This document shows, in pieces, positions 881-58,805 of a stretch of 64,000 nt of DNA. The stretch is from the NCBI RefSeq assembly GCF_050282285.1, contig NZ_JBLZZJ010000013.1; one strand, 5' to 3'. The translations under genes were made by a program, and so were the position numbers. How positions within the stretch are numbered: position 1 is the first letter of the stretch; each line of letters begins with the position of its first letter. A model generated the notes under the pieces. That model did not search any database and was not told the DNA's origin. It saw nothing but the letters and a program-made list of their open reading frames with translations. The stretch is from Pseudomonas sp. (GTDB lineage Bacteria > Pseudomonadota > Gammaproteobacteria > Pseudomonadales > Pseudomonadaceae).

Positions 881-885
881 GTGCG

Positions 886-1158: not shown

Positions 1159-1171
1159 GCGCGCGGCCTCG

Positions 1172-5007: not shown

Positions 5008-5034
5008 CAAGTCCACAGGTTCGGAGAGCAGAGG

Positions 5035-5367
5035 ATGAATTCACTCATGCAGGTGCAGCAGGACATGCTGGGCCGGATGGATCAGATCAAGACCCTGTCC
5101 GAGGGTTCGGTGATCAAGCCCGCCCAGCTGTTCGAGGCCCAGCCTCAGCAAGGGTTCGCGGTGGCCTTCGACAACGTCCTGCGGGCTGTGGATAACCAGC
5201 AGCACCAGGCCGGCGCCGCCGCAGCCGCGGTGGACAGTGGCAAGAGCGATGATCTGGTGGGCGCGATGATCGAGAGCCAGAAGGCCAGCGTCTCGTTCTC
5301 GGCGTTGATGCAGGTGCGCAACAAGATCACCAGTGCCTTCGAAGAAGTCATGAGGATGCCAATGTGA
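5035..5367 (+). CDS. fliE: FliE flagellar basal-body protein
   Basis: 110 aa with the C-terminal FliE signature ...MIESQKASVSFSALMQVRNKITSAFEEVMRMPM. It lies immediately upstream of fliF. Confidence 0.9.
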   Translation: MNSLMQVQQDMLGRMDQIKTLSEGSVIKPAQLFEAQPQQGFAVAFDNVLRAVDNQQHQAGAAAAAVDSGKSDDLVGAMIESQKASVSFSALMQVRNKITSAFEEVMRMPM

Positions 5368-5387
5368 TCGGGCGAGAGTACTGAGCC

Positions 5388-8103: not shown

Positions 8104-8113
8104 GGAGCCGCAC

Positions 8114-8809: not shown

Positions 8810-8812
8810 CCG

Positions 8813-20870: not shown

Positions 20871-21170
20871 GTGCCCATCCACAACACCGGCGACGCTATC
20901 TGTGTAGGAGCGGGCTTGCCCGCGAGCTCTTCTCCCGCAGCCACCCCGATGTCGTTCCCCCACAACCACCGAGTTCGCGGCTGAAGCCGCTCCTACGGGG
21001 TGCGTTCATCCACGCCACCGCCAGCGACGCTACCTATGTAGGAGCGGCTGGGCGGCATACCGATTGCCCGCGAGCTTTCTCCCGTAGCCACCCCGATGTC
21101 GCTCCCACAACCGCCGAGCTCGCGGCCAAGGCCGCTCCTACAGGACGCGCCCATCCACAACACCGGCACA
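20871..21170. repeat. REP cluster organised as about 2.2 tandem copies of a ~130-140 bp unit
   Basis: The unit (g)cccatccacaacaccggc...ctgtgtaggagcgggcttgcccgcgagc...gccaccccgatgtcg...cgagttcgcggctgaagccgctcctac is repeated. The second copy has an expanded REP loop (gtaggagcggctgggcggcataccgattgcccgcgagc). Confidence 0.8.
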
Positions 21171-29450: not shown

Positions 29451-30814
29451 GCACCCTCAACCAGATCGCTTTCAGCGGCGTACGCGCGGCCCAGGTGGCG
29501 CTGTCCACCACCGGGCAGAACATCGCCAACGTCAACACGCCCGGTTTCAGCCGCCTGCACACGGTGATGAGCTCGCTGTCGGGCCAGGGCGGGCTGAACG
29601 TCGGTGGCGGTGTGGAAGTCACCAGCATCCGTCGGCTCTCCAACGACTTCCAGACCCAGCAGCTGTGGCGTGCCACCACCGAGCAGAACTACTACAGCAA
29701 CTCGCAGCAGTACCTGACCTCCCTCGAAGGCCTGATGTCCGGCGACGGCTCGAGCATCAGCGTCGGCCTTGACCGCTTCTTCGCCGCGCTCAGCGAAGCC
29801 AGCGCCACGCCGGGTTCGGTCGCCCTGCGCCAGCAGATCATCAGCGAGACGCGCAACCTCAGCCAGCGCTTCAACGGCCTGAACAGCAACATCGACGCGC
29901 AGATCAACGCCTTGCACGACCAGCGCACGGCCATGGGCAGCGAGATCAACGGCCTGACCGAGAACATCGCGCTGCTCAACAAGAAGATCGTCGAAGCCCA
30001 GTCCATCGGCGGCGACACCTCGGCCCTGCGCGACCACCGTGAAAGCCTGGTCAACGACCTCAGCAAGTACGCCAAGCTGCGGGTCAACGAAGTGCCGGAC
30101 GGCTCGCTCAGCGTCGCCCTGGCCAACGGCCAGCCGCTGGTGGCCGGCGCCACCGCCGGGCGCCTGCAGATCACCAAGACCCCGACCGGCGAGCAGGAAG
30201 TCGCACTGTCCTTCGCCGGCACCAGCTTCCCGCTCAAGCAGGACGGTTTCGGCGGCGCCTTCGGTGGCCTGTACGACGTGGAGTACGGCAGCCTGCGCAC
30301 CTCCCAGGACGCCCTGCACGACATGGCCGGCCAGCTGGCGCAGATGATCAACGACACCCTGGCCACCGGTTTCGACCTCAACGGCAACCCGGGCCAGCCG
30401 CTGCTCACCTACAACGCCACCAGCACCACCGCCATGCTCACCCTCAACGACATCACGCCGGAAGAGCTGGCGCTGTCCTCGGCGGCGGGTGAGAGCGGCA
30501 ACAACGAGGTGCTGCTGGAACTGCTGCTGCTCAAGGGCCAGACCATCACCGTGAATGGCAGCCAGGTGACCCTGAACGACGCCTTTGCCGGGATGCTCGG
30601 CCAGGTCGCCAGCGCCAGCCGGCAGAACCAGGCCGACCTCAAGTCCGCCACCGCCGTGACCCAGCAGGCCCAGGCCCAGCGCGACAGCGTCAGCGCCGTG
30701 AGCCTGGATGAAGAAGCGGTCAACCTGATGACCTACCAGCAGGCCTACACCGCCAACATGAAAGTCATCAGCACCGCCAACCAGTTGTTCGACGAGATGC
30801 TCGCGTCCTTCTGA
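29447..30814 (+). CDS. flgK: FlgK hook-filament junction protein (HAP1)
   Basis: 455 aa. The GTG start overlaps the flgJ stop. N-terminus FSGVRAAQVALSTTGQNIANVNTPGFSR and C-terminus SLDEEAVNLMTYQQAYTANMKVISTANQLFDEML. Confidence 0.94.
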   Translation: MSTLNQIAFSGVRAAQVALSTTGQNIANVNTPGFSRLHTVMSSLSGQGGLNVGGGVEVTSIRRLSNDFQTQQLWRATTEQNYYSNSQQYLTSLEGLMSGDGSSISVGLDRFFAALSEASATPGSVALRQQIISETRNLSQRFNGLNSNIDAQINALHDQRTAMGSEINGLTENIALLNKKIVEAQSIGGDTSALRDHRESLVNDLSKYAKLRVNEVPDGSLSVALANGQPLVAGATAGRLQITKTPTGEQEVALSFAGTSFPLKQDGFGGAFGGLYDVEYGSLRTSQDALHDMAGQLAQMINDTLATGFDLNGNPGQPLLTYNATSTTAMLTLNDITPEELALSSAAGESGNNEVLLELLLLKGQTITVNGSQVTLNDAFAGMLGQVASASRQNQADLKSATAVTQQAQAQRDSVSAVSLDEEAVNLMTYQQAYTANMKVISTANQLFDEMLASF

Positions 30815-30847
30815 ATGCCGCGCCGTTAACCAGCCGAGAATCGACCC

Positions 30848-31762
30848 ATGCGGATTACCAACGCGCAGACCACCGCCCTGATGCACAACTCGATGAACAG
30901 CAGCTCTGCGCAGGTGGCCAAGCTGATGCAGCAGATGGCGCTGAACAAACGCATCCTGCTGCCCTCGGACGACCCGATCGCCAGCGTGCGGGTGCTGCGC
31001 ATCCAGCGCGAGGAAGCGAGCCTGGAGCAGTACCGCACCAACATCGCCAACGTTTCCGGCAACCTCTCGACCCAGGAAGCCAACCTGCAATCCACCTCGG
31101 ACGCCATGCTCAATGTGCGCGACCTGTTGCTGTGGGCGGCCAACGGTTCGAACACCAGCGAAGACCTGGCGGCCATTGCCGGTGAGCTGGAGAACATCGA
31201 GAAGACCATCCTCAGCTTCGCCAACGTGCGTGACGAAGAAGGCCGCTACCTGTTTTCCGGCACCCTCAGCGATGTGCCCTCGGTGACCTACGATGCCGGC
31301 ACCGACACCTACGTGATGACCGGTAACGCCAAGCACCGCCAGGCCGCTGTGGCCAACGGCGTGCTGGTGGCCGAGAACATCACCGCCCTGGAAGTATTCG
31401 GCCCGAACATGGACATGCTCAACGACCTGCACGGTCTGGTCGCCATGCTCAAGGACCCGGCGCTGGATGCCACCGATCCTGCCGTGCGCCAGCAGATCAC
31501 CGACACCCTGAACCAGCTCGATGCCACCCACAGCGGCGTGCTGGGTGCGATCACCGAACTGGGCGGCCGGCAGAACACCCTGAGCCTGCTCAACGACAGC
31601 AACGAGGAGGTCTCCCTGGTCAACCAGAAGATCGACGGCGAGCTGTCCAAGCTCGACTACGCCGGTGCCACCATCGACCTCAACAACTACCAGCTCTCGC
31701 TGCAGGCGACCCAGAAGACCTACCTCCGGGTCAACGAGCTGTCGCTGTTCAGCCTGCTGTAA
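30848..31762 (+). CDS. flgL: FlgL hook-filament junction protein (HAP3)
   Basis: 304 aa; contains MRITNAQTT...ILLPSDDPIASVRVLRIQRE and a flagellin-like C-terminus. Confidence 0.92.
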   Translation: MRITNAQTTALMHNSMNSSSAQVAKLMQQMALNKRILLPSDDPIASVRVLRIQREEASLEQYRTNIANVSGNLSTQEANLQSTSDAMLNVRDLLLWAANGSNTSEDLAAIAGELENIEKTILSFANVRDEEGRYLFSGTLSDVPSVTYDAGTDTYVMTGNAKHRQAAVANGVLVAENITALEVFGPNMDMLNDLHGLVAMLKDPALDATDPAVRQQITDTLNQLDATHSGVLGAITELGGRQNTLSLLNDSNEEVSLVNQKIDGELSKLDYAGATIDLNNYQLSLQATQKTYLRVNELSLFSLL

Positions 31763-31780
31763 GTCGCTGGGGGCCGCGCC

Positions 31781-32824
31781 ATGAAGATCGACAAGCAGCT
31801 ACCGGTCACGACCATTCTCGATCCGCGCGCGCGCGATCAGGCGCAGCTTCCGGATTCGCCCCTCGTGCCGCGCCGGGCCACTCCGCCGCGTGCCAGCGAA
31901 TCGGCCGCCGGCACCGAGCGCCTGCTGGGCAAGGGCGCGGGTTTCAGCCTGCAACTGAACCAGCAGCTGTCGTCCATGCAGTCCGCCGAGCGCTACCTCA
32001 GCGAGCTGTCGGACCAGCTGTCGGCGCTCAAGCTCAACCTCAGCCGGCAGATCAGCTCGCCGCAGACGGTCAACGAGCGCGAGAGCATCGCCCGCTCCCT
32101 GCAGCAGGTGAACAGCCTGCTGGAGCAGCGCGCCAAGCGCTCCGGCGAATCGCTGGACGCCACCTTCAAGCTGCGCCTCAACGAGCCGCTGCGCAGCCGC
32201 TTCAGCCTGCAGGGCCTGGAGTCCATCGAAACGGTCCAGCGCTCGGGCAAGGAAACCCTGCTGCTCAGCGCCGGGCGCTACCTGGCCGAGCCGCTGGCCG
32301 TGGTGCTGGATGACGGCATGAGCAGCGAGCAGGTGCTGCGCCGCTTCAACAGCAGCCTGGGCCAGGCCGGCATGCGCGCCGAACTGGACCAGGACGGCGC
32401 CCTGAAATTCTCCGCCCCCGAAGGGGACTGGCAGACCATCAAGGGCCAGCTGCGGGTCCAGGGTGAGGGCAAGCTGTTCAGCAAAGTCGCCGCGCCGCTG
32501 GCCAGTCACGACGATGGCTTGCTCGAGTTTCCTACCGAGCTGGGCCAGGACACCTTCCGCGAACTGCGCCAGCTGCTCGATTCGGTGGTCTCGGCCCTGG
32601 ACCGCGTGGGCGCCCTGCGCGAACAGCTCAGCCAGCGCCAGGCCGACGTGCGCGAATTCCTCGCCCGCCAGGAAAGCCTGGACGAAAAGCAGTGGGCGCT
32701 GGGCTTCGCCTCCTCGGTGTTCGATGCGCGTGGACGCAAGTCCTCCGGTTACTCGGTGGTGTCGCAAACGGTGCTGGCCCAGGCCAACCTCACCCGTTTT
32801 GCGGTGGTCAGCCTGCTGTCGTGA
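31781..32824 (+). CDS. Flagellin/HAP-terminus-like protein of unknown role (LafW-like)
   Basis: 347 aa. It has N-terminal heptad helices (LQLNQQLSSMQSAERYLSELSDQLSALKLNLSRQI) and a C-terminus (SVVSQTVLAQANLTRFAVVSLLS) that resemble flagellin-superfamily termini. It follows flgL directly. Confidence 0.55.
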   Translation: MKIDKQLPVTTILDPRARDQAQLPDSPLVPRRATPPRASESAAGTERLLGKGAGFSLQLNQQLSSMQSAERYLSELSDQLSALKLNLSRQISSPQTVNERESIARSLQQVNSLLEQRAKRSGESLDATFKLRLNEPLRSRFSLQGLESIETVQRSGKETLLLSAGRYLAEPLAVVLDDGMSSEQVLRRFNSSLGQAGMRAELDQDGALKFSAPEGDWQTIKGQLRVQGEGKLFSKVAAPLASHDDGLLEFPTELGQDTFRELRQLLDSVVSALDRVGALREQLSQRQADVREFLARQESLDEKQWALGFASSVFDARGRKSSGYSVVSQTVLAQANLTRFAVVSLLS

Positions 32825-33146
32825 CGGCAGCTCGCTCGCGCCGTTTCTCGCTCCCGCGGCATTTCACCACGGCGCCAAGTGTTTTCGCGGTCACAGTTCG
32901 ATGAGGCTCCCGATCATGAATGGATGCGGTTCGGGTTATCCTGCGCCCAAGCCCGAAGGCCCACGCTGGGGTCGACAGCAACACCCCGGATGCCTTCATA
33001 ATGTCGCCAGCATGGTGGCACTGTGCCTTTATGCGATTATTGGGCTGTGTGCAGGCATCAGGAGACTATGCAACGATCTTGCGTTTGTATGGGTCTCAAG
33101 GAACGATGCGATCGGCCCCGTGACGGGGCAATGGCGGGGGAATTCC

Positions 33147-33485
33147 ATGGTTTATGTACAGCGTGACGAGCACGGACGCCTGCTTCGGGTCGAGTATCAG
33201 CCGTTCGACGGCATGACCGACAACCTGGCAGTGGAAAGCGACGAACTGAAAGCCTGGCTCAACGCCAAGGAAGAAGTGCGCGCGCGGCTGGCCAGCCTGC
33301 ACAGTTCGGACCTCGAACTGGTGCGCGTATTGGAAGACGTGGTCAGCGTCCTGGTCGAACGGGGCATCATCCAATACACCGACCTGCCCGAGGCCGCGCG
33401 GATCAAGCTCGATCAGCGTGCCGTCGCGCGCGCCGAGATCGAAGGCCTGAGCAGCATCCTCAGCGGTGAGCCGCCAGACGCCTGA
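33147..33485 (+). CDS. Small conserved hypothetical protein
   Basis: This is the last 112 codons of track ORF 32463..33485, starting at the ATG at 33147 (MVYVQRDEHGRLLRVEYQPFDGM...). A strong terminator follows it. Confidence 0.6.
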   Translation: MVYVQRDEHGRLLRVEYQPFDGMTDNLAVESDELKAWLNAKEEVRARLASLHSSDLELVRVLEDVVSVLVERGIIQYTDLPEAARIKLDQRAVARAEIEGLSSILSGEPPDA

Positions 33486-33511
33486 ATCCAGGCGTGACAG
33501 GTACGAATGAA

Positions 33512-33542
33512 GAGGCCCCGGGTGCGAACCCGGGGCCTTTTT
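33512..33542 (+). terminator. Rho-independent terminator
   Basis: aggccccggg-tgcgaa-cccggggcct followed by ttttt. Confidence 0.85.
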
Positions 33543-33770
33543 CGTTGCGCTGTGGGCGCGGCAGACTGCCGAGTCATTTAGACTTTGAATTAGTCTTCAT
33601 GACATGAATTCAGTGCGAGTCATTGCGACTATGAATCTATAGGTAGTTGATTTCAATGATATTTATTGTTGGCACAGTTCCTGAAATACCTACTGCAGAT
33701 ACCCGTCGGCGTCGAGCGACCCCAATCGTCCAGCCGGCCACCTTTTCTCATCTGCTTTAGGAACCGACCG

Positions 33771-34190
33771 ATGCAAGCAATCAACAGCAAAGTCCTGCAG
33801 GCCCTGGAGAACGTCATGGTGATTTCCACCACCGACCTTCAAGGCAACATCACCTACGTCAACGACCTGTTCTGCACGCTCACCGGCTACACCCGCGAAG
33901 AGCTGCTCGGCCAGCCCCACAGCCTGGTGCGCCACGCGGCCGTGCCCAAGGCCACCTACAAGCAGATGTGGGACACCATCAAGAAAGGTGAAATCTGGAC
34001 CGGCGTGATCCCCAACGTTGGCAAGAACGGCGGCCTGTACGTGGTCGATACCACCGTGCAGCCGGTGTTCGACGAGCAGGGCACCATCGTCGAGTACATC
34101 AGCATCCGCCGGGTCATCAATGACCTGATGGCCGACTTCGAAGCCCTGGAGTTCTCCAAGGAGCAATTCGACGACTACTACGACAGGTAA
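33771..34190 (+). CDS. Stand-alone PAS-domain protein (Aer-type PAS)
   Basis: 139 aa counted from the ATG at 33771, 8 nt after AGGA. PAS motifs are present (NITYVNDLFCTLTGYTREELLGQPHSLVRHAAVPKATYKQMWDTIKKGEIWTGVI...GGLYVVDTTVQPV). Confidence 0.8.
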   Translation: MQAINSKVLQALENVMVISTTDLQGNITYVNDLFCTLTGYTREELLGQPHSLVRHAAVPKATYKQMWDTIKKGEIWTGVIPNVGKNGGLYVVDTTVQPVFDEQGTIVEYISIRRVINDLMADFEALEFSKEQFDDYYDR

Positions 34191-34196
34191 GCAGCC

Positions 34197-35747
34197 ATGC
34201 CAGCGTCCATCGAACGCATCGTGATCGCTTATGGCTCCGAATCCGGCAATGCACACGGGCTGGCGGAGCTTTTCGCCCGCCTGTCCTGGGTGCAGCCGTA
34301 CGTCGTGGTCGTGCAGGATCTCAACAGCCTGGCGCTCGACACCCTGAGCGCCAGGGACCGGCTGGTGATCGTCTCCAGCTCCTTTGGTGATGGCGAGCCA
34401 CCGGGCAACGCCGACCGCTTCCTCGACCAGATGGCGGCATGCGCCAACCTGGAGGGAGTGCCCTACGCCATCTTCGGCCTGGGCGACACCGCCTACCCGA
34501 CCTTCTGCGGCTTCACCAAGGCCGTGGACGCGGCCCTGCTGGAGAAAAAGGCCGTGCCCTTCATGAATCGGGTCGATGCCGACATCGATTTCGAAGGCTT
34601 CTTCGACACCTGGTGCGCGGCGTTTGAAGCCGTGCTCAACGGCGATGCCGAGGCCGGTCTGCGCCTGGACCTGCAAGTCACCGCCTACGGCGAAAACGCC
34701 GCCTGGCCGGCACGCATTCTCTCGCGCATCGAACTCAACGCCAGCGCGCCCTACGCCTACCAGTTGCGGCTCGACCTCAAGGGTAGCGGTATCAAGTACC
34801 GCGCCGGCGACAACCTCTACGTGTTGGCTGAGAACGAGCCGGCGCTGCTGGCGCGCATCGATGCCTGGTTCGGCCTGAGCGCCCCCAGCGACCTGCTGCG
34901 CCACAAGGAACTGCGGCAGATCGGCAAGTCGACCCTGCGTGACCTGGCCAAGGCCTCGCAGAACGACAGCCTCAAGGACCTGCTCAAGGTCAGCGCGCGC
35001 AAGGACCTCGACGGCTACCTCTACGGTAAGGACATCTTCGACGTGCTGACGGACTTCTGCGCGCCGGAGCAGTTCAGCCTGGAAACGCTGGCCGAGTGGC
35101 TGCCCGAGCGGCTGCCGCGGGCCTACTCCATCGCCTCCCACGACCATGCAGACTACGTGGACCTGTGCATCCGCGAGGTCGCCTATTCACTGGAAGGCCG
35201 CGACCGCACCGGCATGGCCACCGGCTACCTGACCCGCGACACCCAAGCGGTGCAGGTCTTCGTGCGCAGCAACCCGCGCTTCCACCTGGCCCGGGACGCG
35301 CAGCACCCGCTGCTGCTGATCGGCACCGGTACTGGCATCGCCCCGCTGATCGCCCTGCTCGAACAGCGCGAACGGGAAAACAGCACCGCCCGCACCTGCC
35401 TGGTGTTCGGCGACCGCCGCCGCGCCTCCGACTACCTGTACCGCCCGCGCCTGGCCGGCTGGCATGCCCGGGGTGTGCTGGAGCGGGTGCTCACCGCCTT
35501 CTCCCGTGACAGCGACCGGCGCTACTACGTGCAGGACGCACTCGTCGACAACGGCGCCTACATCTGGGAGCTGATCGAGCAGGGCGCCCACCTGTACCTG
35601 TGTGGCAACAAGGCCAACCTGGAAAGCGCCATCGAACAGGCCCTGGTTACCGTCGCCAGCCAGCACGGCAAGCTCGACGACGAGGCCGCCGAAGCCTTCG
35701 TCCAAGAGCTGGTAAGCGCCGGCCGTGTGCACAAGGAGCTGTACTGA
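34197..35747 (+). CDS. Diflavin reductase (flavodoxin + FAD/NADPH ferredoxin-reductase domains; CysJ-like)
   Basis: 516 aa. It has a flavodoxin-like N-terminus (IVIAYGSESGNAHGLAE...VSSSFGDGEPP). The FAD motif is RAYSIAS, the NADPH motifs are LLLIGTGTGIAPL and YLCGN, and YVQDAL is also present. Confidence 0.85.
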   Translation: MPASIERIVIAYGSESGNAHGLAELFARLSWVQPYVVVVQDLNSLALDTLSARDRLVIVSSSFGDGEPPGNADRFLDQMAACANLEGVPYAIFGLGDTAYPTFCGFTKAVDAALLEKKAVPFMNRVDADIDFEGFFDTWCAAFEAVLNGDAEAGLRLDLQVTAYGENAAWPARILSRIELNASAPYAYQLRLDLKGSGIKYRAGDNLYVLAENEPALLARIDAWFGLSAPSDLLRHKELRQIGKSTLRDLAKASQNDSLKDLLKVSARKDLDGYLYGKDIFDVLTDFCAPEQFSLETLAEWLPERLPRAYSIASHDHADYVDLCIREVAYSLEGRDRTGMATGYLTRDTQAVQVFVRSNPRFHLARDAQHPLLLIGTGTGIAPLIALLEQRERENSTARTCLVFGDRRRASDYLYRPRLAGWHARGVLERVLTAFSRDSDRRYYVQDALVDNGAYIWELIEQGAHLYLCGNKANLESAIEQALVTVASQHGKLDDEAAEAFVQELVSAGRVHKELY

Positions 35748-35777
35748 CACGCTCACGCTCCAGCCGCTTCTACATCC

Positions 35778-35804
35778 CCTGTAGGAGCGGCCTCGGCCGC
35801 GAGC
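35778..35804. repeat. Single REP element
   Basis: cctgtaggagcggcctcggccgcgagc. Confidence 0.8.
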
Positions 35805-36007
35805 TTCAAGGCCTCACGCCTTGAACCGCTCACCTCCGCTCTTCCCCGCCATTCCTCCCCGAAAAACCCTGTCGCACAAACGACAATCTGTCGCGTTTAG
35901 TGTGTAGTGGTCTACTGAATCCGCCCCGTCATTGCGGTAAGAATGGGTGCTGCGTTGGGAACAATAACGTGGCCCTTTGCCACTTCTCACCGAACAAGGA
36001 ACGTCTG

Positions 36008-37123
36008 ATGACCACATCCGTGCTGCAAGGCCTGTACTGGCATGACCTCGACGGCATCCGCGAGCGTCACGCCGCCGGCGCCGACCTGAATGGTCTCGAC
36101 GACAACGGCTGCACGCCGCTGACCGAAGCCATCAGCGGCGGCATGGGGTATCCACCGGTGGTCAAGCTGCTGCTGGAACTGGGCGCCGACCCGCACCTCG
36201 CCGACGGCAACGGCCTGACACCCTGGCTGGCCTGCCTCATGCGCCGCCAGGACCGCGTGGTGGAAACCGAATACCGCAAGATTCGCAAACTGCTCGAAGC
36301 CGCCAAGGCCGACCGCCGTGGTGACGAACTCTTCGAACTGGAAGACAAGGCCGCCGCCGGTGACCTGCGCGCCGTGCAGGCGCTGCTCGACAAGGGCTGC
36401 CCGGTGGAGGGAGCGCACGCCGCCCCCCTGGGCGTTGCGCTGTTCAACGGTCACGGCGACGTGGCGGAACTGCTGCTGCAGCGTGGCGCCTCGGTCGAAG
36501 GCAAAGGGGCCGACGAGCACGGCATGACCCTGCTCATGAGCGCCGCCAATTATGGGCTGCTGGACATGGTGCAATTGCTGGTGCGCCACGGCGCCGACGT
36601 GTGCCGCGCCTGGAGCGGCCCCGACAGCTGCCAGACCGCCGCCTGGTACGCGCGCGATGCCGGCCACAACGAGGTCGCCGACTGGCTGGCCGCCCAGCAC
36701 CCGGGCGCCGAACGCAGCCCCATTCCCAAGGCCGCGCTCAACGGCGGTGCCAAGGCCAAGTACCTCGACCTCTACCGCCACTACACCCAGGGCGCCAACC
36801 ACGGCCTGAACACCGAGGCCATCGTCAAAAAGCTGCAGCGCTGGGACAAGGACTACGGCATCCACGTGCTTGATGTCGCCACCGACCGCCTCACCGTGCA
36901 GTTCGACCGCCTGCCCGACGACCTCGGCAAACTGGCCAAGGACCTCGGCAAATTCTGCCCCGACACCCTCGACAGCTTCGCCGCCCTGGCCGAACAGAAA
37001 ACCCCGACCCCTGACCAGCAAGCGCTGCTGCAAGGCCTCGACCCTGCCGACAAGCACTTCGCCCACAAGGCCCTGCAACGCTGGCTGCAGACCCACCAGG
37101 CCGTTGCGTTGTGGTGGGATTGA
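36008..37123 (+). CDS. Ankyrin-repeat protein with an unrelated C-terminal domain ending in WWD (possibly DUF4253-like)
   Basis: 371 aa counted from the ATG at 36008. It carries several ANK repeats (GCTPLTEAISGG...VVKLLLELGADPHLADGNGLTPW; GMTLLMSAANYGLLDMVQLLVRHGADV). A C-terminal region of about 120 aa ends ...KFCPDTLDSF...AVALWWD. The domain name is from memory only. Confidence 0.7.
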   Translation: MTTSVLQGLYWHDLDGIRERHAAGADLNGLDDNGCTPLTEAISGGMGYPPVVKLLLELGADPHLADGNGLTPWLACLMRRQDRVVETEYRKIRKLLEAAKADRRGDELFELEDKAAAGDLRAVQALLDKGCPVEGAHAAPLGVALFNGHGDVAELLLQRGASVEGKGADEHGMTLLMSAANYGLLDMVQLLVRHGADVCRAWSGPDSCQTAAWYARDAGHNEVADWLAAQHPGAERSPIPKAALNGGAKAKYLDLYRHYTQGANHGLNTEAIVKKLQRWDKDYGIHVLDVATDRLTVQFDRLPDDLGKLAKDLGKFCPDTLDSFAALAEQKTPTPDQQALLQGLDPADKHFAHKALQRWLQTHQAVALWWD

Positions 37124-37167
37124 TCCACAGCTAGCCCCGCTGGCGCGGTTATCCACAGGCACAAAAA

Positions 37168-37190
37168 AGCCCGGCATATGCCGGGCTTTC
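37168..37190 (+). terminator. Rho-independent (bidirectional-looking) terminator
   Basis: aaaaaagcccggcatatgccgggctttc: a perfect 9-bp stem with an A-run upstream and a T-rich tail downstream. Confidence 0.75.
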
Positions 37191-37254
37191 TGCATCCGTA
37201 GTGTGGGTCGAGGCCCGGAGCTGAGTGCCGCCACTGACCGCGCGGCGCACCTAC

Positions 37255-37421
37255 CCTGTAGGAGCGGCTTCAGCCGCGAGCTCGGCGGCCTCATGGCAGC
37301 ATCGAGGTAGTGGTTCGACCGAAAAGCTCGCGGGCAAGCCCGCTCCTACAGGGTATGCGCGCCGCATGCGGAACTGGATGCCTGGCGCCGATCCTTGTAG
37401 GAGCGGCTTCAGCCGCGAGCT
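37255..37421. repeat. Three REP elements in alternating orientation
   Basis: The elements are cctgtaggagcggcttcagccgcgagct (37255), agctcgcgggcaagcccgctcctacagg (37325) and cttgtaggagcggcttcagccgcgagct (37394). Confidence 0.85.
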
Positions 37422-37467
37422 TGGCGATGTCATGGCGGACGCAGGGCGCCCACCTGACCCTGGGAAA

Positions 37468-37764
37468 TCAGCGCTGCTTGCACATCTCCAGCTCGGCCTG
37501 ACTGTTCAGCTCAGTGCGAATACCAAGGCGGTATTTGCAATAAGCGATCACCACCTGCCGCTCTTCATCGTTCAGTCGCTCGAGCGGTTTGTCGTCCTGG
37601 TCCGATGCATAAATATTCTCGAACCGCACCTGAAAGGTCGGGTGCTTTTTGATGAAAAACACCAGCCGGTTGTCTTCGGCAAAGTAGGTCTTGTAGAAGC
37701 CGACGCCCAGCCAGGCCAGTGACACGGCCAGCGCTACCAACAGCAGGGATATCCTGGTTTTCAT
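37468..37764 (-). CDS. Small exported/membrane-anchored hypothetical protein
   Basis: Track ORF 37468..37818 trimmed to MKTRISLLLVALAVSLAWLG..., giving 98 aa. The segment has lower G+C than its surroundings. I recognise no motif. Confidence 0.5.
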   Translation of the reverse strand: MKTRISLLLVALAVSLAWLGVGFYKTYFAEDNRLVFFIKKHPTFQVRFENIYASDQDDKPLERLNDEERQVVIAYCKYRLGIRTELNSQAELEMCKQR

Positions 37765-37910
37765 GATGTCGCCGACTCCTTGGCCTGCTGTATAGACGTT
37801 CTCACTGGGTTCATTCATCCCTGACCGCAGCCAATGTACCCCGTAGCCTGGGTCGAGCGAAGCGACACCCGGGACGATCTTTGCCCCGGCGCCGCTCGCT
37901 CACCGCGTAC

Positions 37911-38222
37911 TCAATGTCGCCGCGACGCCTCGCCAATCCCCTCGACACAGGCCCGCACCGTGGCCTTGGCCATTTCCACCAGGCAGGCGCAGGCATGGCC
38001 CATCTGTTCGCGGCGTTGCGCGTCGGTGTGGTTCAACTGAAGGGCCAGCTCCTCGGCCACATCCAGCAGGCTATAGGCACTGTCCAGCGCATCGGCCACC
38101 GGCACGCCGGGCTGCACGGCGAACAGTGGTTGCCGGGCGGCATTGCACGGATGGAACAGCGTGCTGACGGTTCTGGCCGCGTTGTGGTTGCCGGCTGGGG
38201 TGGGGCTGCATGAATCCTTCAT
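37911..38222 (-). CDS. Small hypothetical protein (resembles the Pseudomonas DUF3077-type family; from memory only)
   Basis: 103 aa with a strong AAGGAG 7 nt before the ATG. The core reads PLFAVQPGVPVADALDSAYSLLDVAEELALQL. Confidence 0.55.
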   Translation of the reverse strand: MKDSCSPTPAGNHNAARTVSTLFHPCNAARQPLFAVQPGVPVADALDSAYSLLDVAEELALQLNHTDAQRREQMGHACACLVEMAKATVRACVEGIGEASRRH

Positions 38223-38373
38223 GAGTACGGCTCCTTGATTTGAGAAGCCGCCACGTTCGTGACCAAACGAAATGGGTGGCGGCTGTACGCAGGTTGGTCA
38301 ACCGGGAATCAAGGAACCCGGCGCGCACGAATGCGCCCCACGCACAGCCACCATAAATCGGTTCAGCAGACAC

Positions 38374-38405
38374 AAAAAAGCGCCTACTCCGATGCGGTGG
38401 CGCTT
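38374..38405 (-). terminator. Hairpin plus T-run on the minus strand
   Basis: The minus strand reads aagcgcc-accgcatcggagta-ggcgctt followed by ttttt. Confidence 0.45.
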
Positions 38406-38602
38406 ATGCGCCTTGATGTTCTCAGGTGACCAAACCCGGCCGCTGAATTGGCAGCGACGGGCGAACTGTAGGCGTTCGGGAGCCGGAGGCGCAAGACGGA
38501 TCGCCGGAGTAGAAGGTCAGCGTTAATCGACACGGGTGGTAGGAGAAGGCTGCAAGGTGCTGCCAGCGCCGGTTCCCGATAGATCCGTCCTGCCCGAGAA
38601 CG

Positions 38603-38634
38603 AAAAAAGCCCCAGGCATTCACCTGGGGCTTTT
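38603..38634 (-). terminator. Strong bidirectional hairpin terminator, probably the ancestral tRNA-Arg terminator
   Basis: gccccagg-cattca-cctggggc has six A upstream and four T downstream. It begins 10 nt beyond the displaced tRNA 3'-end copy. Confidence 0.75.
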
Positions 38635-38638
38635 CATG

Positions 38639-38653
38639 TCTGGCGCCTCGGCG
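38639..38653. repeat. Left direct repeat (attL-like): displaced copy of the tRNA-Arg 3' end
   Basis: tctggcgc-ctcggcg matches tctggcgcactcggcg at 43140-43155 in 15 of 16 positions, with one base missing. Confidence 0.65.
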
Positions 38654-38784
38654 TGCTTAGAATATGAACTGTAACTATCTGTTTTATATGTTTTTTCTGG
38701 TTAGTTATCTTTGCTGGGATACAAGTAGGGATACATGCTGTGCTGAGGACGAGGGGGCAGCGAACCGTCCCCTCCAGCAAATCA

Positions 38785-41019
38785 CTAGGCCGTGGTGATA
38801 GGAATCCGGACTTGAGTTCGAGGTTCCAACGGCAGCAAGATTTCCGCATAGGCTTGCAGCACAAGTGAGTACAGATTCTTGACTCGTGGTGCTTTCAGCG
38901 TTACCAGAAGCGCATACGGCATTGGACGAGCCTCTTTGTCCGCACGGCCTTCATCACGATTGTGATAGTAGAGATCAAAACAAGGCTTGACTAAAGACGA
39001 GCCGCGTTTTGTCTTTGACGCCTTAAGACATGGTTCCCACTTATGTCCGTCCTGCCTCAATTGGAGCTCTGACTTGTTGTAAATTTTCCCTGTAGAGAAA
39101 AAAGTGTCCGTGTTTGAATAATCTTCGCTTTTATCCTCAGCAACTTTTGTGGTGTCGGGGCGGAAGACGACCTCTAGCCCTGCTCGGGTATAGGCGTGTG
39201 CGAATGCAGGATCTACTTCCGGCGCGATAGCAAGAGTTGCTTTTACCTGTACATTTCCGGTTAGTACTGAGTCAGGCAGCGGGATTGGGGCCCTGAGATA
39301 TTTGCTCAGAGGCAGGAGTCCCTCGTAAAGAATTGTCACTTCGTCATCTTCACAAGCCAAGAGAACCTCTGGGTCGGAAATAAATCGACCCCAGCCAACT
39401 TCTTGGCTCTTATGGTCACCACTGTCTGAGTGATGAATCAAAAGAGCACGAATCCCCAGCGGAGATATATCCTCGCCAATCAATGCCCGGGCGCCAACAC
39501 ATGTGCGAAGTGCAAAGGGAGTCGCGAAACTTGTGCCTTCTACTCCTGATATTCCATGCGCATAGCTTGAGACGACGCCGAATGGTTGTTGAGTTGTGCC
39601 GCCGAATGAAACGCCATCTGGTTTTGCTATGCCTGGGGTTCTACCTGGACCTACTGAGCTGTAGGAGGCTCGAGACCAAATTTTATCCAGGGAGTCGCAT
39701 GCCCCCACTGATAGAACGTTTACACCATCAGCAGGAGGCTGGATTCGATTTAGTTTAAGCTCGTGATCTAGCTCGCCTGTGTTTCCGACGGCAACGGCTG
39801 CTAATACGTCTTTTTTTGCGAATCGTAGATCGAGTTCAAAGGTCCAGCGATTTATTTCATCATCTTCTACTGACATGTCGGGGCCGAGGCTGAAATTTAC
39901 GAAGTGGTACGGCTTCTCGACTCCATCAAGGTGATTTAGTATTCGATCTAGTACGTCGTAAAATTCAAAGTCACCATCTAAACCTGTTGCGTCATCAATA
40001 ACCCGTATATGGTCAACCTTGGAGTAGGGCATTGGGATGTTGTCGGTGCTGCTGATATGCCCGAACAGTATTGCTGATGTCACTGCCTCCCCATGATGGA
40101 GTAAGTCAATAGTTGCGTTTCCTACTCCCTCACCTTCATAGCAATTAACCCATTTGAGCAAGGGCGATCCCTGAGGGATGCCGCCGTCAAAGATGGCTAC
40201 TCGGACTTCGCTATCTAAAACTAACTCATCTGGGAGGGCAGAACTTCCCGAGTACAGGGTTCTAATCGCGCCAGGCTTAAAGGTGCGAAGGGTTGGCATT
40301 CTGCGCACAGCCCTTACATACGTAAAGGTGCCTACCTGCTCAAGAGAAACATTCGTTCCACGAATCGGAATAAATGTAATTCCTGACGAAAATCTGACTT
40401 TTTTCTTTATTGGTTCGACATTAATATGATCTAGAAAGTTATAGAATGAATTGAGTACGTTGGGATTCGCGCCACTGTGCAGAACAACTTCGAAAAGACC
40501 GCTCGTATTATTTGACTCTGGACCTTTAACTTTTGATTCGCCAGTCGGAATCGTGAGATCTTCAATCGCTTGTAGCTGTAAATGAGCATCACTGTCAGGC
40601 TGCCAGCCGTTAATTTTTTCTGCGAGTCCTCTCAGAGCTTTCCTTGTCGTGGAAACGAACAATGTGTCTGTTACCGCACCCTCTGGATGTTTTTCTATTC
40701 CCCATTGTTCTGGTTTGACATATTTGGATGTGCCGCCGACAGTGATGAAACCTACTTCATTAAGAAGCTCTTTGGGGAAGTCTGTCTTTGAGATAAATCT
40801 TGGGTGAATAACAATGTTTGCAATTACCTTGTCCTCTGGCAGCGCAGTGCTTTCCAAGTTGTCCAGGTAGGTGCATGCGTTGCGCAGCTTTGTTGTAATC
40901 CGCTCCTTTGCTGATGAAAAAGAATAGGCGGGGTTCTTCTCACTTGGGCCATTTTTTTTAGTCACAACTCTGGTTAGAGCTTCGCCCTTCCCAAGGAGGA
41001 AGTTTTTTTTCTTTTCCAT
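38785..41019 (-). CDS. Large cytoplasmic subtilisin-family (S8) serine protease with unknown N-terminal (~270 aa) and C-terminal (~240 aa) regions
   Basis: 744 aa with no signal peptide (MEKKKNFLLGKGEALTRVVTKKNGP...). The S8 catalytic motifs occur in the correct order: AIFD278GG, HH309GEAVTS, VAVGN413TG and GTS497FATP. Codon usage is A/T-rich. Confidence 0.85.
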   Translation of the reverse strand: MEKKKNFLLGKGEALTRVVTKKNGPSEKNPAYSFSSAKERITTKLRNACTYLDNLESTALPEDKVIANIVIHPRFISKTDFPKELLNEVGFITVGGTSKYVKPEQWGIEKHPEGAVTDTLFVSTTRKALRGLAEKINGWQPDSDAHLQLQAIEDLTIPTGESKVKGPESNNTSGLFEVVLHSGANPNVLNSFYNFLDHINVEPIKKKVRFSSGITFIPIRGTNVSLEQVGTFTYVRAVRRMPTLRTFKPGAIRTLYSGSSALPDELVLDSEVRVAIFDGGIPQGSPLLKWVNCYEGEGVGNATIDLLHHGEAVTSAILFGHISSTDNIPMPYSKVDHIRVIDDATGLDGDFEFYDVLDRILNHLDGVEKPYHFVNFSLGPDMSVEDDEINRWTFELDLRFAKKDVLAAVAVGNTGELDHELKLNRIQPPADGVNVLSVGACDSLDKIWSRASYSSVGPGRTPGIAKPDGVSFGGTTQQPFGVVSSYAHGISGVEGTSFATPFALRTCVGARALIGEDISPLGIRALLIHHSDSGDHKSQEVGWGRFISDPEVLLACEDDEVTILYEGLLPLSKYLRAPIPLPDSVLTGNVQVKATLAIAPEVDPAFAHAYTRAGLEVVFRPDTTKVAEDKSEDYSNTDTFFSTGKIYNKSELQLRQDGHKWEPCLKASKTKRGSSLVKPCFDLYYHNRDEGRADKEARPMPYALLVTLKAPRVKNLYSLVLQAYAEILLPLEPRTQVRIPITTA

Positions 41020-41032
41020 CAGCTGGTTCCCT

Positions 41033-42124
41033 TTATTTGTTGCTGGCAGTTTTCTTTCTGATTGTGTCTCTGGCTACGCCCGTTATTTCCGAAGCTCTTC
41101 GTTGGGTTACGCCAGCTTTTATTAGGCTACAGGCAAGCTCCAGTTTTGCGGGGCTAGGCAGCAGCAGCGCTTCCCTTGAAATTCGGTCAGATAATATCTC
41201 TGTTATTGGGGTTGAATTAATTATTGATGCCCGAAATGCAGAAGTTAGCCATTTTTCAACATCTGCGAATGAGTTGTTTGAAAAAATGATAGAGATTGCT
41301 GTTGATAGTTCTTCGGCATTTTTTATGTTTAGTTTTGTAAGTTTCGGTAATACGAATTTTGAAATTTCTAGTTTGTCAGGAAATGGTATTTCTATGATTT
41401 TGTCAAAGCGTCGCCATACAGCTCTGTCAAGAATTTCTGGGTGATTGGTCGCTGCGATTAGCATGCCATCTACAGGCCATTCATCCAAAGACTGCAAAAG
41501 TACGTTGACTAGCCGTTTTAGCTCTCCAACGTCACCAGCGTCATCACGTTTTTTTGCAACAGCATCAAACTCGTCTAGAAATAGAACGGAGCCATCATTG
41601 CTATGCTCCTTGAGAACGTTTTTTAGGTTGTTCCCTGTTTGGCCTAAGTAGCTGCTCATCACTGCAGCTAAATCTAGAGTTACTAACGGTCTTCCGAGTT
41701 GTTGTGCCAGCCACCTTGCAGACATAGTTTTTCCTACGCCTGGAGGTCCTGTGAAAAGCAGCGAACGAGTAGGAGAAATGCCAGCGTTCATCAGCTCCCT
41801 TACACGCTTGCGTTCTTCAATAATTTCATAGAGATCATGTTCTATGCTCGAGCTCCAGACAGGCTCTCCAGCGCTCTCAAAAGAGCTAAAGACCATTGAC
41901 GGACTTGTCTCTTTGTTACCAAAGGTGGTGGGGGTTGCTTTTCTCAAGCCGTCAGCTGGATTGTCCTCTGTTTTTGATAGCAGTCCTTTCAACTGCGATG
42001 AAAGCTCAGGGTGTTCCCCTTGAAATTTACGCGTAGCTCGTCGGATCACCATAAGGGCATCCTGTTGACGGCCGGAAAGGGCTAGTCTTGCGAGCTGGAC
42101 GTAATCCGTGTAGATGTCATTCAT
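41033..42124 (-). CDS. Classic-clade AAA+ ATPase with a C-terminal helix-turn-helix-like tail
   Basis: 363 aa. It has Walker A GPPGVGK132T, Walker B VLFLDE185FD, sensor-1 IAATN227 and the second region of homology PEILDRAVWRRF. The C-terminus reads LIKAGVTQRRASEITGVARDTIRKK. It ends 13 nt before the protease ATG. Confidence 0.85.
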   Translation of the reverse strand: MNDIYTDYVQLARLALSGRQQDALMVIRRATRKFQGEHPELSSQLKGLLSKTEDNPADGLRKATPTTFGNKETSPSMVFSSFESAGEPVWSSSIEHDLYEIIEERKRVRELMNAGISPTRSLLFTGPPGVGKTMSARWLAQQLGRPLVTLDLAAVMSSYLGQTGNNLKNVLKEHSNDGSVLFLDEFDAVAKKRDDAGDVGELKRLVNVLLQSLDEWPVDGMLIAATNHPEILDRAVWRRFDKIIEIPFPDKLEISKFVLPKLTKLNIKNAEELSTAISIIFSNNSFADVEKWLTSAFRASIINSTPITEILSDRISREALLLPSPAKLELACSLIKAGVTQRRASEITGVARDTIRKKTASNK

Positions 42125-42177
42125 TTCGTCCGCCTGTAAGCCGCTTGAAATGGGGCTTTCGTGTTGAATTGGGCGAC

Positions 42178-42207
42178 ACTATAGATGCTTGATGATAATT
42201 CGTCCAA
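42178..42207 (-). promoter_or_regulatory. Candidate sigma-70 promoter of the ATPase-protease operon
   Basis: The minus strand reads TTGGAC-N18-TATAGT, about 50 nt upstream of the ATPase ATG. The palindrome gttctgcttaacagaac (42214-42230) lies just upstream. Confidence 0.35.
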
Positions 42208-42638
42208 TTCTGCTGTTCTGCTTAACAGAACCAAACCCGGCCGGCTAAACAAGCGGGGTTTAGCACCGCTAAGCACGGTTAAGCACTGCAAATCTGTTGC
42301 TACATGGGGTCGAAAGGTGGCGTTGCTCGTTTAGAAGAATTCTGGCTTCTCAGCGGCTCAGGCTGCAGGGTTTTGCAGGGATCGAATCTGCGAGTAAACC
42401 GACGATGGTGCCAACACTTATGCACATGCGAGGCGGGTGAGGGGGGGGCAGGGAAAACCATAGGTTTAGCGGGCAGGCGTGGAGGGGGGAAGACTGCGCG
42501 CGCCCGCAGCAGCTCGATGGCTGGTCAGGGGCGGTAGGGTTGATCGGTGTGAAGCGGGACGCCCATGCTTGAGGCCGAAGCAGGTGAAAAAAGAAAGCCG
42601 CACAGGGCGGCTTTCTGGGACATTGAGGCCGGGGGAGG

Positions 42639-43021
42639 TCAGACGGTCTTGAGCCCTTTTGTCGGGCCGTAGTTCTCACCCCTGCTACCGATCTCGTCAG
42701 GGATCTTGCCGCCATGGGGACTAGCTTTTTCAGGGCGACGCGGTTGCCTGCTACTACCTCCCCCGATACCGCTGCTGGCACAGCTACTAACACCGTCTGC
42801 GCCTTGCGGTTGGTCTTCATAACTTCGCCCAGCACCAGGCGAGCGAAGTTCACCAGCGCGGCTTGCGTGTAGCCGCCCGCGATCACTGGGCCCAGTGGCT
42901 CGGTGCTCCGCTCGATCTCGGTATTGATCATGCGTTGGTCAGTGCGTGGTGCCTGGGCCAGGGCTTTCCAACTGGCGTTGGCTTCGCTGGCCCCCTCTTC
43001 TAAGAGTTCCAGAGGATGCAC
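42639..43021 (-). pseudogene. Possible frameshifted small ORF of unknown family between the operon and the tRNA
   Basis: Track ORF 42350..43021 looks coding only for about 95 codons. A shift of one base near 42705-42715 gives ...GKIPDEIGSRGENYGPTKGLKTV* with a stop at 42639-42641. That stop lies 23 nt before a minus-strand hairpin and T-run at 42587-42615. Confidence 0.25.
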
Positions 43022-43067
43022 CCTAGGACACAGGGAGGAAGGTTAAGGGTAGGCAACGGTAGACAAC

Positions 43068-43100
43068 CATAAACAACAAAGCCCGCTCTAAGCGGGCTTT
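43068..43100 (-). terminator. Hairpin terminator following the live tRNA-Arg
   Basis: The minus strand reads aaagcccgc-ttaga-gcgggcttt followed by gttgttt, about 40 nt after the tRNA 3' end. Confidence 0.6.
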
Positions 43101-43141
43101 GTGGGTGTTTCATAGGCATCAGACAACTAGAAACATCGATC

Positions 43142-43218
43142 TGGCGCACTCGGCGGGATTCGAACCCACGACCCCTGCCTTCGGAGGGCAGTACTCTATC
43201 CAGCTGAGCTACGAGTGC
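43142..43218 (-). tRNA. tRNA-Arg (anticodon CCG)
   Basis: The reverse complement is GCACTCGTAGCTCAGCTGGATAGAGTACTGCCCTCCGAAGGCAGGGGTCGTGGGTTCGAATCCCGCCGAGTGCGCCA. It folds by hand into a 77-nt cloverleaf with a 7-bp acceptor stem, GTGGG/CCCGC T-stem, TTCGAAT T-loop, anticodon loop CT-CCG-AA and an encoded CCA. Confidence 0.93.
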
Positions 43219-45073: not shown

Positions 45074-45196
45074 TCACACCGTTACTCGCAGTGGCCGGGA
45101 AAGCTGGGGCAGTCGATCATCGCATGCTGCCGTAGTTGCCTCCCCGCCACGTAATCCTTGAACCACGCCGACCGATGAGCGGCGAATGAGGACGTC

Positions 45197-58263: not shown

Positions 58264-58805
58264 TGTGGGAGGGGCTTTAGCCGCGAGCTTTTGACAATCG
58301 CCGCTGAAGCGCCTCCCACGGAAGGGATTCCATCGTGGCGGTGGTTCGGCGAGGAGCTCGCGGGTAAGCCCGCTCCTACAGGGTGGCGCTCCGGTGTCAT
58401 GTACGCAGCGGCTGATAGTCGTGGTGGAAAACGCTTCGCGGTTTTCCACCCTACGGCTGATGGGCAATAGAGATGTGGGAGGGGCTTTAGCCGCGAGCTT
58501 TTAGCAATCGCCGCTGAAGCGCCTCCCACGGAAGGGATTCCATCGTGGCGGTGGTTCGGCGAGGAGCTCGCGGGTAAGCCCGCTCCTACAGGGTGGCGCT
58601 CCGGTGTCATGTACGCAGCGGCTGATAGTCGTGGTGGAAAACGCTTCGCGGTTTTCCACCCTACGGGCTGGTGGGCAATAGCGGTGTGGGAGGGGCTTTA
58701 GTCGCGAGCCTTTGACAATCGCCGCTGAAGCGCCTCCCACGGAAGGGATCCCACCGTGGCGGCGGTTCGGTGAGGAGCTCGCGGGCAAGCCCGCTCCTAC
58801 ACGGG
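58264..58805. repeat. About 2.6 tandem copies of a 210-211 bp unit, each unit containing several REP-type palindromes
   Basis: Units start with tgtgggaggggctttag(c/t)cgcgagc at 58264, 58474 and 58685. Each unit also has ccgctgaagcgcctcccac, gagctcgcgggtaagcccgctcctaca and ggtggaaaacgcttcgcggttttccacc. Copies 1 and 2 are nearly identical. Confidence 0.9.

Follow-up and report, generated by a model that had tools for sequence, protein, structure and literature searches.

The 64-kb stretch of Pseudomonas sp. contig NZ_JBLZZJ010000013.1 analysed here (the window) contains a 4.5-kb islet at the 3' end of a tRNA-Arg(CCG) gene. The segment (38639-43164, both repeats included) is very probably the remnant of a P4-type integrative element with satellite-like gene content, a deletion derivative that has kept its ietAS cargo. 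An original prediction, made from the DNA alone, had read the locus as the product of site-specific integration into the tRNA 3' end. This interpretation is supported overall and largely holds. Coordinates of the islet are window positions, features on the minus strand are marked (-), and L001, L002, L031, L083, L084, L085, L087, L088, L091 and similar designations stand for comparison loci.

Integration site and empty site

43142-43218 (-), tRNA-Arg(CCG), the integration target, intact (ARAGORN; Rfam tRNA, 65 bits)
43140-43164 (-), attL core, the tRNA-proximal repeat copy from the T-loop to CCA plus 2 nt, corresponding to the region of the L084 attB that matches both window flanks
38639-38662 (-), attR core, the distal imperfect copy of the tRNA 3' end (21/25 positions, one T fewer)
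38603-38634 (-), ancestral tRNA-Arg terminator, now 4.5 kb from the tRNA (RNA fold)
43076-43102 (-), element-borne hairpin of 12 bp that now follows the tRNA (fold; kept in L001 and L091)

The integration event is documented by an empty site in a related genome. Two related genomes, L083 and L084, were reached via homologues of the flanking DUF3077 protein; an exact-sequence look-up of the window DUF3077 protein itself gave no record. In L084 (Pseudomonas sp. GD03944), the order is gabT, gabD, tRNA-Arg(CCG), terminator, DUF3077 gene and ankyrin/DUF4253 gene, and the tRNA 3' end runs directly into GACATGAAAAAGCCCCAGG..., which leads to the terminator and the DUF3077 gene. L084 7716-9585 matches window 45009-43140 with 97.3% identity, and L084 9561-10376 matches window 38662-37841 with 94.3% identity. 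The two flank matches overlap by 25 nt (9561-9585), and this overlap is exactly the direct repeat, so that the relative joins both flanks of the islet at the repeat. The attB of L084 reads ...CCCGCCGAGTGCGCCAGA followed by CATGAAAAAGCCCCAGG. The window attL reads ...GCGCCAGA followed by TCGATGTTTCTAG, and the window attR TTCTAAGCACGCCGAG-GCGCCAGA followed by CATGAAAAGCCCCAGG. A restored attB junction is expected to have the form ...GCGCCAGACATGAAAAGCCCC. The order of tRNA, terminator and DUF3077 gene had been named beforehand as the test of site-specific integration at the tRNA 3' end, and the exact 25-nt overlap in L084 confirms the claim.

The tRNA-Arg(CCG), on which ARAGORN and Rfam agree with the original assignment, is the sole tRNA that ARAGORN finds in the window, and its region is 99.4% identical to L083 and 97% identical to L084. 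The 16-mer TCTGGCGCACTCGGCG at its 3' end (43140-43155) has a second copy, TCTGGCGC-CTCGGCG, with one base fewer, at 38639-38653. This is the only other site in the window at no more than one error, and no matching site was present in 60 composition-preserving shuffles. The repeat is in fact longer than the 16 nt first noticed. With one indel, 38639-38662 and 43140-43164 agree at 21/25 positions (TTCGAATCCCGCCGAGTGCGCCAGA versus TTCTAAGCACGCCGAG-GCGCCAGA in tRNA sense), and the match extends into the T-loop. The insertion thus lies at the tRNA 3' end and is accompanied by a duplicated 3' segment, with the tRNA 3'-end copies 4,501 bp apart. Since the T-loop-side part of the attR core, TTCTAAGCACGCC, is the same in L001 and L002, it is element-derived, and the CCAGACATG side is host-derived because it matches the empty site.

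The distal copy of the tRNA end is incomplete in four elements, with 1-4 nt of the acceptor-stem segment absent. The cores read CGCCGAG-GCGCCA in the window (38639-38662), CGCCG---GCGCCA in L002 (3876-3895), CGCCGGA-GCGCCA in L085 (13387-13408) and CGCCGGA----CCA in L091 (about 5010-5030). An imperfect attP core could account for the missing nucleotides, as could processing of the overlap region.

The hairpin and T-run outside the left repeat copy had been proposed to be the ancestral tRNA terminator, and this is what they are. The RNA of 38592-38641(-) folds into a 14-bp stem followed by a U-run (-25.4 kcal/mol, z -4.6), and the terminator stands directly after the tRNA in L084, L083 and L031, with similar hairpins after the tRNA in many Pseudomonas species. 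The live tRNA is followed by a different, 12-bp hairpin, again as predicted (43062-43112(-), -22.7 kcal/mol, z -4.7). Both are far more stable than shuffled controls. A hairpin pattern scan of metagenome and viral contigs gave an unrelated terminator as its sole match.

Composition

The G+C (guanine plus cytosine) fraction is 0.62-0.71 in the flanks and 0.39-0.51 over 38.6-42.2 kb, and returns to 0.58-0.63 over 42.2-43.1 kb. The AT-rich core has a G+C of 0.467, compared to 0.64 for the whole window. Values at third codon positions (GC3) show the same contrast: 0.40 for ietA and 0.44 for ietS versus 0.89 for gabD and 0.86 for the ankyrin gene, both in the flanks. The islet therefore deviates from its host in composition, and the G+C collapse between the repeats, initially based on counts in single lines, is borne out by windowed values. 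A 32-nt direct repeat with 72% identity (38733-38764 and 42424-42455) was considered as a boundary, and judged to be a G-rich chance match.

The IetAS cargo

41033-42124 (-), ietA, AAA+ ATPase with C-terminal helix-turn-helix, 363 amino acids (PADLOC IetA, 1.6e-71; Pfam AAA, 2.4e-31, 109 bits)
38785-41019 (-), ietS, S8 subtilase-type serine protease, 744 amino acids (PADLOC IetS, 3.9e-48; Pfam Peptidase_S8, 4.6e-13)
42178-42206 (-), sigma-70-like ietA promoter, TGGACG, 17-nt spacer, TATAGT (both hexamers kept in L085 and L088)

Two genes fill the AT-rich core. They have the same orientation and are separated by a 13-nt gap. The first encodes an IetA-type ATPase with Walker A motif GPPGVGKT at residue 126 and Walker B motif LFLDEFD at residue 181, and the adjacent one an IetS-type protease in which the motifs FDGG, HHGEAV and GTSFATP are all present. 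Judged by these matches, the cargo is the known IetAS defence or toxin-antitoxin pair. In its first description, IetAS was a toxin-antitoxin pair that stabilises plasmids, the toxin being the protease and the antitoxin the ATPase (PMC13069673). It acts as an abortive-infection type phage defence that is triggered by a phage protein (PMC13069673; bioRxiv 10.1101/2022.08.27.505566).

The promoter hexamers are conserved in L085 and L088, loci with coding DNA about 70% identical to that of the window. Compared to L001, ietA has 9 synonymous and 0 non-synonymous codon differences, and ietS has 24 synonymous and 4 non-synonymous ones. The sum of 33 synonymous versus 4 non-synonymous differences indicates purifying selection on the operon.

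Homologues of the pair are found in several other mobile settings. In L088 (4465-5388), a Pseudomonas-type IetAS homologue adjoins a TIR-domain protein. In L095, from P. syringae, it is located at the end of an integrase/NikA/TrbL element, and in L096, from P. fluorescens, beside a DUF927-DUF3077-AlpA element.

The decayed backbone and the missing integrase

42991-43139 (-), attL-proximal backbone, upstream region of the lost integrase gene (83-85% to L001 and 83-84% to L091, where it precedes integrase fragments)
42641-42990 (-), pseudogene of a ~250-amino-acid satellite protein family distantly similar to Psu (phmmer, P0137, E 1.5e-19)
42592-42616 (-), terminator after the Psu-like pseudogene (kept in L001, L091 and L085)
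42448-42504 (-), conserved box 1, upstream edge of the cargo slot (81% to L085; kept in L001, L002, L085 and L091)
42363-42379 (-), conserved box 2, CCTGCAAAACCCTGCAG, an imperfect palindrome (kept in IetAS elements and in the DRT3 element)
38716-38735 (-), two TGTATCCC repeats on the attR side, 12 nt apart, at 38716 and 38728 (sole copies in the window)

The part of the islet between 42.2 and 43.1 kb has host-like G+C, and had been taken as a hint that the true junction might lie elsewhere. This suspicion was not upheld. As judged from its homologies, the region is the element's own decayed backbone, and neither host DNA nor a sign of a misplaced junction. A phmmer search with window 42644-43021(-) against a representative library of 1.84 billion proteins identified the family of P0137, members of which directly follow the primase gene in other elements. 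The profile of this family matches the 250-amino-acid protein of L085 with 88% hhalign probability, and the L085 protein in turn matches the PHROG 'Psu-like' with 1.5e-18. The 223-amino-acid open reading frame (ORF) of the window has no Pfam or PHROGs match, nor has the Psu-distant family, and the placement comes solely from phmmer and hhalign. The pseudogene has an N-terminal truncation, an internal deletion of ~85 codons near 42900 and a 1-nt frameshift at 42719/42720. In the alignment, family residues from about 48 to 88 are joined straight to residues from about 172 through the end.

The homology to the integrase-upstream region ends at about 42990, just short of the position of the int start codon in L001, and the integrase gene has therefore been lost from the window as a whole. 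A full-length L085-type integrase had no tblastn match anywhere in the window at E<=1, and none of the L085 proteins gave a tblastn match below E 0.1 in 42100-43141. The absence of a recombinase, reported in the original prediction, thus stands: no integrase gene is found next to the tRNA in the window, in contrast to L001, L091 and L085, which have fragments or full genes.

The islet ends carry copies of the TGTATCCC repeat. On the attR side, the pair is located ~70-80 nt before the attR-like core in L001, L002, L085 and L091. Near attL, L001 and L091 have three forward copies and one reverse copy. In the window, 42991-43139 contains three degenerate copies (TGTCTACC, TGTGTCCT and TGCATCCT) with two mismatches each. 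From this arrangement, we infer that TGTATCCC is a candidate arm-type site for the Arm-DNA-binding domain of the integrase.

Related elements

Two short public contigs, L001 and L002, encode an IetA protein identical to that of the window. L001 extends from inside the tRNA-Arg to the distal repeat. Its tRNA has the acceptor variant GGATGCGCCA, which differs from that of the window, and the two hosts are therefore different. The proximal 150 nt of L001 are followed by a 64-amino-acid N-terminal integrase fragment (Pfam Arm-DNA-bind_3, 7e-9), a 63-amino-acid ORF and the terminator. A homologue of this ORF is present in the window, where it contains the frameshift mentioned above. The L001 integrase fragment is 90% identical to the L085 integrase (88-90% for the L001 and L091 fragments).

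L085 and L087 encode IetA proteins that are 77% identical to the one in the window. L085 shows the element in intact form. The order is integrase (Arm-DNA-bind_3 and Phage_integrase), a 291-amino-acid protein, a helix-turn-helix or excisionase-like protein, Ogr_Delta, two AlpA, DUF3077, Toprim primase, DUF927 primase-helicase, the Psu-like protein, terminator, conserved box, IetA and IetS, and at the end two TGTATCCC repeats, TTCTAGGCACGCCGGAGCGCCA and the host terminator.

L091 starts in the tRNA-Arg, and its backbone is 98.5% and 91.6% identical to L001. It encodes a 186-amino-acid integrase fragment and P0138, in which the middle of int is fused to the C-terminus of a Psu-like-family gene. 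P0138 represents a second deletion scar of independent origin. The terminator and box that follow are the same, and behind them L091 has a different cargo, Drt3a (2e-136) and Drt3b (6.5e-226), followed by the TGTATCCC pair and the attR-like core. In view of IetAS in the L085- and L001-type elements and DRT3 in L091, the slot between the Psu-like gene and attR holds interchangeable defence systems.

A scan of viral contigs with the profile of the Psu-distant family led to L098 (IMG/VR UViG_3300050582_000095). Its region 440-9305 encodes a D5_N primase, a member of the Psu-distant family, a P2-family major capsid protein, a resolvase, Mob_Pre and Ogr_Delta, and is satellite-like, yet has its own capsid gene. 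L098 supports the association of the Psu-distant family with satellites, and says nothing on the cargo.

Mosaic structure of the islet

The islet had been suspected to be mosaic, and comparison with L001 agrees. Identity is 98-100% from 38650 to about 42450, in the cargo, and then 70-87% to the tRNA, in the backbone, with a non-homologous stretch at 42750-42990. The switch occurs inside box 1 (42448-42504), at about 42475. The matching copy of the cargo in L001 is located at a variant tRNA-Arg(CCG). The mosaic of window and L001 and the different cargo in the same backbone of L001 and L091 show that cassettes have been exchanged between backbones. The pattern of identities thus makes the islet a mosaic with a swapped defence cassette.

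Origin of the islet

Integration of P4-type elements into tRNA 3' ends is established. By this route, the element would have entered the 3' end of tRNA-Arg(CCG) through site-specific recombination by its tyrosine integrase. It would have brought a replacement for the tRNA 3' flank with its own hairpin, and displaced the original tRNA end and terminator by 4.5 kb. A later deletion that began at the integrase start and ended near codon 45 of the Psu-like gene would have removed int, Ogr/Delta, AlpA and the primase-helicase, and what was left of the Psu-like gene would then have suffered a second, internal deletion and the frameshift. The cargo slot beside attR is intact and contains a promoter-equipped ietA-ietS operon. 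If IetA curbs the IetS toxin here as described, the pair could act both by abortive infection and as an addiction module, which would favour retention of the islet after the loss of mobility. Cargo and attR-side repeats were exchanged between diverged backbones, with one crossover in the conserved box at about 42475. The order of these events is likewise a proposal.

Several points weigh against this account. L001, L002, L085 and L091 are contigs assembled from short reads. The locus analysed does not extend to the attL end of L085, and the tRNA target of L085 is deduced only from its attR-like core. No Sid or capsid-related gene was found in L085, and the satellite behaviour of L085-type elements is putative. 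The P0137 family itself has no PHROG match at E<=0.01, so that the Psu-like label of the pseudogene family is an indirect and provisional one, obtained via the 88% hhalign probability. Because no integrase fragment survives in the window, descent from an int-bearing element is argued from the homology of the backbone to its relatives. Finally, the activity of IetAS in this strain is a presumption.

Other explanations have to be considered. It is hardly conceivable that the repeat copies match by chance and that low G+C is simply a property of unusual resident genes: beyond the shortness of the repeat nothing favours this, the same junction is found in independent contigs, the shuffles contain no matching site, and the empty site of L084, which ends exactly at the repeat, rules it out. 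More serious is the option of tandem accretion. An L001-type satellite could have integrated into the att core of an older resident, and recombination between the two copies of the Psu-like gene and box 1 could have deleted the old cargo together with the int-to-psu backbone of the newcomer, leaving the old backbone, the new cargo and the new attR. A single step would then account for the chimeric structure as well as for the missing integrase, in agreement with the switch of identity inside box 1 and with attR-side repeats that are L001-type next to divergent ones on the attL side. This is rather unlikely, as no tandem intermediate has been observed, the int deletion junction (about 42990) and the internal deletion (about 42900) still require separate events, and a cassette swap between free satellites before integration fits equally well.

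The lineage may also never have integrated the element, and have imported an already integrase-less islet by homologous recombination via the tRNA/gabD and terminator/C4-DUF3077 flanks, with transduction or transformation as the route, as proposed for core defence hotspots. The mosaic pattern and a different integrase-less island of 9.5 kb at the same intergenic spot in the closest relative, L083, are compatible with such an exchange, which has been proposed at hotspots flanked by tRNA or tmRNA genes (PMC10250203). Import of a block that includes the flank conflicts with the 20-nt host flank of L002, which differs from that of the window (GATAATG vs GACATG), and with the attR cores (GAG-G in the window vs G---G in L002). 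The tRNA acceptor variants of window and L001 differ as well, and we regard flank-mediated import as unlikely. Lastly, the islet could still behave as a cis-mobilizable element, excised and moved in trans if another, related satellite in the cell supplied a cognate P4-type integrase and AlpA. In favour of this, the islet has kept both att cores and an intact TGTATCCC pair on the attR side, and near-identical cargo with the same attR-side sequence is found at the variant tRNA-Arg(CCG). This is doubtful in view of the two mismatches in each of the three attL-side copies, the absence of a related integrase from the window, and the fact that neither a circular junction nor a tandem array was seen. 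A deletion derivative of an integrated P4-type element is thus the preferred reading.

A more general proposal, which we put forward as quite improbable, is that integrase-less defence islets are a regular end-product of satellite turnover, and that boxes 1 and 2 (42363-42504) are dedicated sites for cassette exchange or regulation, and more than just conserved sequence between genes. If true, a satellite would land in the tRNA, recombination at the boxes would swap or deposit a cassette and discard the backbone, and the chromosome would keep the self-stabilising IetAS. As both att cores survive, the integrase of a later satellite could recapture the cassette.

Genomic neighbourhood

The original prediction had placed the strain in the P. 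putida group. The nearest relatives that were found are GD03944 and another Pseudomonas sp. assembly (L083), neither with the name P. putida, and the GabD of the putida-labelled GM4FR (L013) has 91% identity, so that this placement was not borne out. In L083, the DUF3077 protein is 97% identical, and the tRNA is followed at once by the terminator. The other integrase-less island in this locus (L083 205-9748) takes the place of window 38476-38602, just past the terminator and before the a1/b1 element. It encodes HsdR, HsdM and HsdS (type I restriction-modification), AbiD (5.8e-65) and PDC-M15A/B.

In a survey anchored on gabD, with about 30 loci of Pseudomonas species representatives listed, the tRNA adjoins gabD in most, and a AAAGCCCCAGG-type terminator stands 3' of the tRNA in many. 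The left flank of the window is absent from these ~30 loci among the matches listed. In L004, L010, L013, L016, L021 and L024, from several Pseudomonas species, an insertion of 3-7.6 kb separates the 5' side of tRNA-Arg(CCG) from gabD, so that variation is found on the other side of the tRNA as well.

Just outside attR, window 38272-38471(-) contains a C4 antisense RNA (Rfam RF01695, 85.6 bits) and an a1/b1 target element (RF03163, 56.5 bits). They lie upstream of the DUF3077 gene (37911-38222(-)) and form an immunity module of the phage P1/P7 type, which the empty site of L084 shares. The P4-type elements L085 and L096 contain DUF3077 genes, too. Because of the module at the empty site and these DUF3077 genes, the 'host' flank beside attR may itself be the relic of an older mobile element. 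A further tRNA-derived repeat, the sign of an older tandem element, was not found in 30000-38630.

Window 37213-37840 (628 bp, G+C 0.54), with a 116-amino-acid ORF that has a signal-peptide-like start, is present in L083 and absent from L084. It is a separate small indel beside repeats that resemble repetitive extragenic palindromic (REP) elements. Dispersed repeats of ~30-100 nt with 76-97% identity occur at 35777-35816, 37257-37297, 37393-37436 and 20903-21001, and further copies at 58331-58393, 58541-58603 and 58776-58804. All match one intergenic segment of L083 and are probably of the REP type. The gabT RNA motif (Rfam RF01738, 67.3 bits), an expected cis-regulatory element, is found at 45090-45151(+), between gabD and the next gene.

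Comparison with known systems

Gao et al. reportedly described IetAS as a defence system in 2020. The window pair resembles described IetAS systems in being a two-gene operon for an AAA+ ATPase and an S8 serine protease, with strong hidden Markov model matches and intact motifs. In contrast to them, it is a divergent Pseudomonas variant, the closest named homologue being 68% identical. The C-terminal helix-turn-helix of the window IetA is a further difference.

P4-like satellites have a defence hotspot between psu and int, in which cassettes are rapidly swapped (Rousset et al. 2022, PMC9122126; NAR 2026, PMC13586616). L085 is similar to these satellites in having a P4-type integrase with Arm-DNA-binding domain, Ogr/Delta, AlpA, a primase-helicase and a Psu-like gene. 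Its circular form would place the variable defence cassette between psu and attP-int, and the swap of IetAS for DRT3 between backbones is a further similarity. In contrast to the known satellites, the host is Pseudomonas rather than a member of the Enterobacterales, and no Sid or capsid-remodelling gene was found. With respect to the P4-like core set of int, alpA, delta/ogr, alpha primase, psu and sid, the window keeps only the Psu-distant pseudogene. The window copy has lost int, delta, alpA and alpha, and therefore can no longer be a satellite.

Cis-mobilizable elements (CIMEs) have been defined for derivatives of integrative and conjugative elements and of integrative and mobilizable elements in Streptococcus. 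The islet is similar to CIMEs in that it is flanked by att sites, lacks genes for recombination or transfer, and is derived by deletion from a larger integrative element. It differs from CIMEs in its P4-type parent. The degenerate state of the attL-side repeats argues against mobilisation in trans, and any mobilisation is putative.

In P. aeruginosa, core defence hotspots are flanked by tRNA or tmRNA genes (Johnson et al. 2023, PMC10250203). The islet likewise occupies a conserved locus next to a non-coding RNA gene, with different systems in relatives (IetAS in the window, type I restriction-modification, AbiD and PDC-M15 in L083). It is unlike these hotspots in that the tRNA is Arg-CCG beside gabD, rather than tRNA-Pro or ssrA, and in that the mechanism of insertion can be read from the att sites. 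The tRNA-Arg(CCG) beside gabD is thus a landing site for defence DNA in this Pseudomonas lineage.

Taken together, the islet is a well-supported instance of a known process, and no conceptual departure from known biology. What is new comes down to three points: the setting in Pseudomonas, the series of deletions, and the conserved boxes that border the cargo slot. For a host outside the Enterobacterales, attB, attL, attR, an intact element of the parent type, two independent deletion intermediates and a sister element with other cargo make up a fully resolved case of the conversion of a phage-satellite defence cassette into a fixed chromosomal islet. It also makes a divergent IetAS variant with its native promoter available for functional work.

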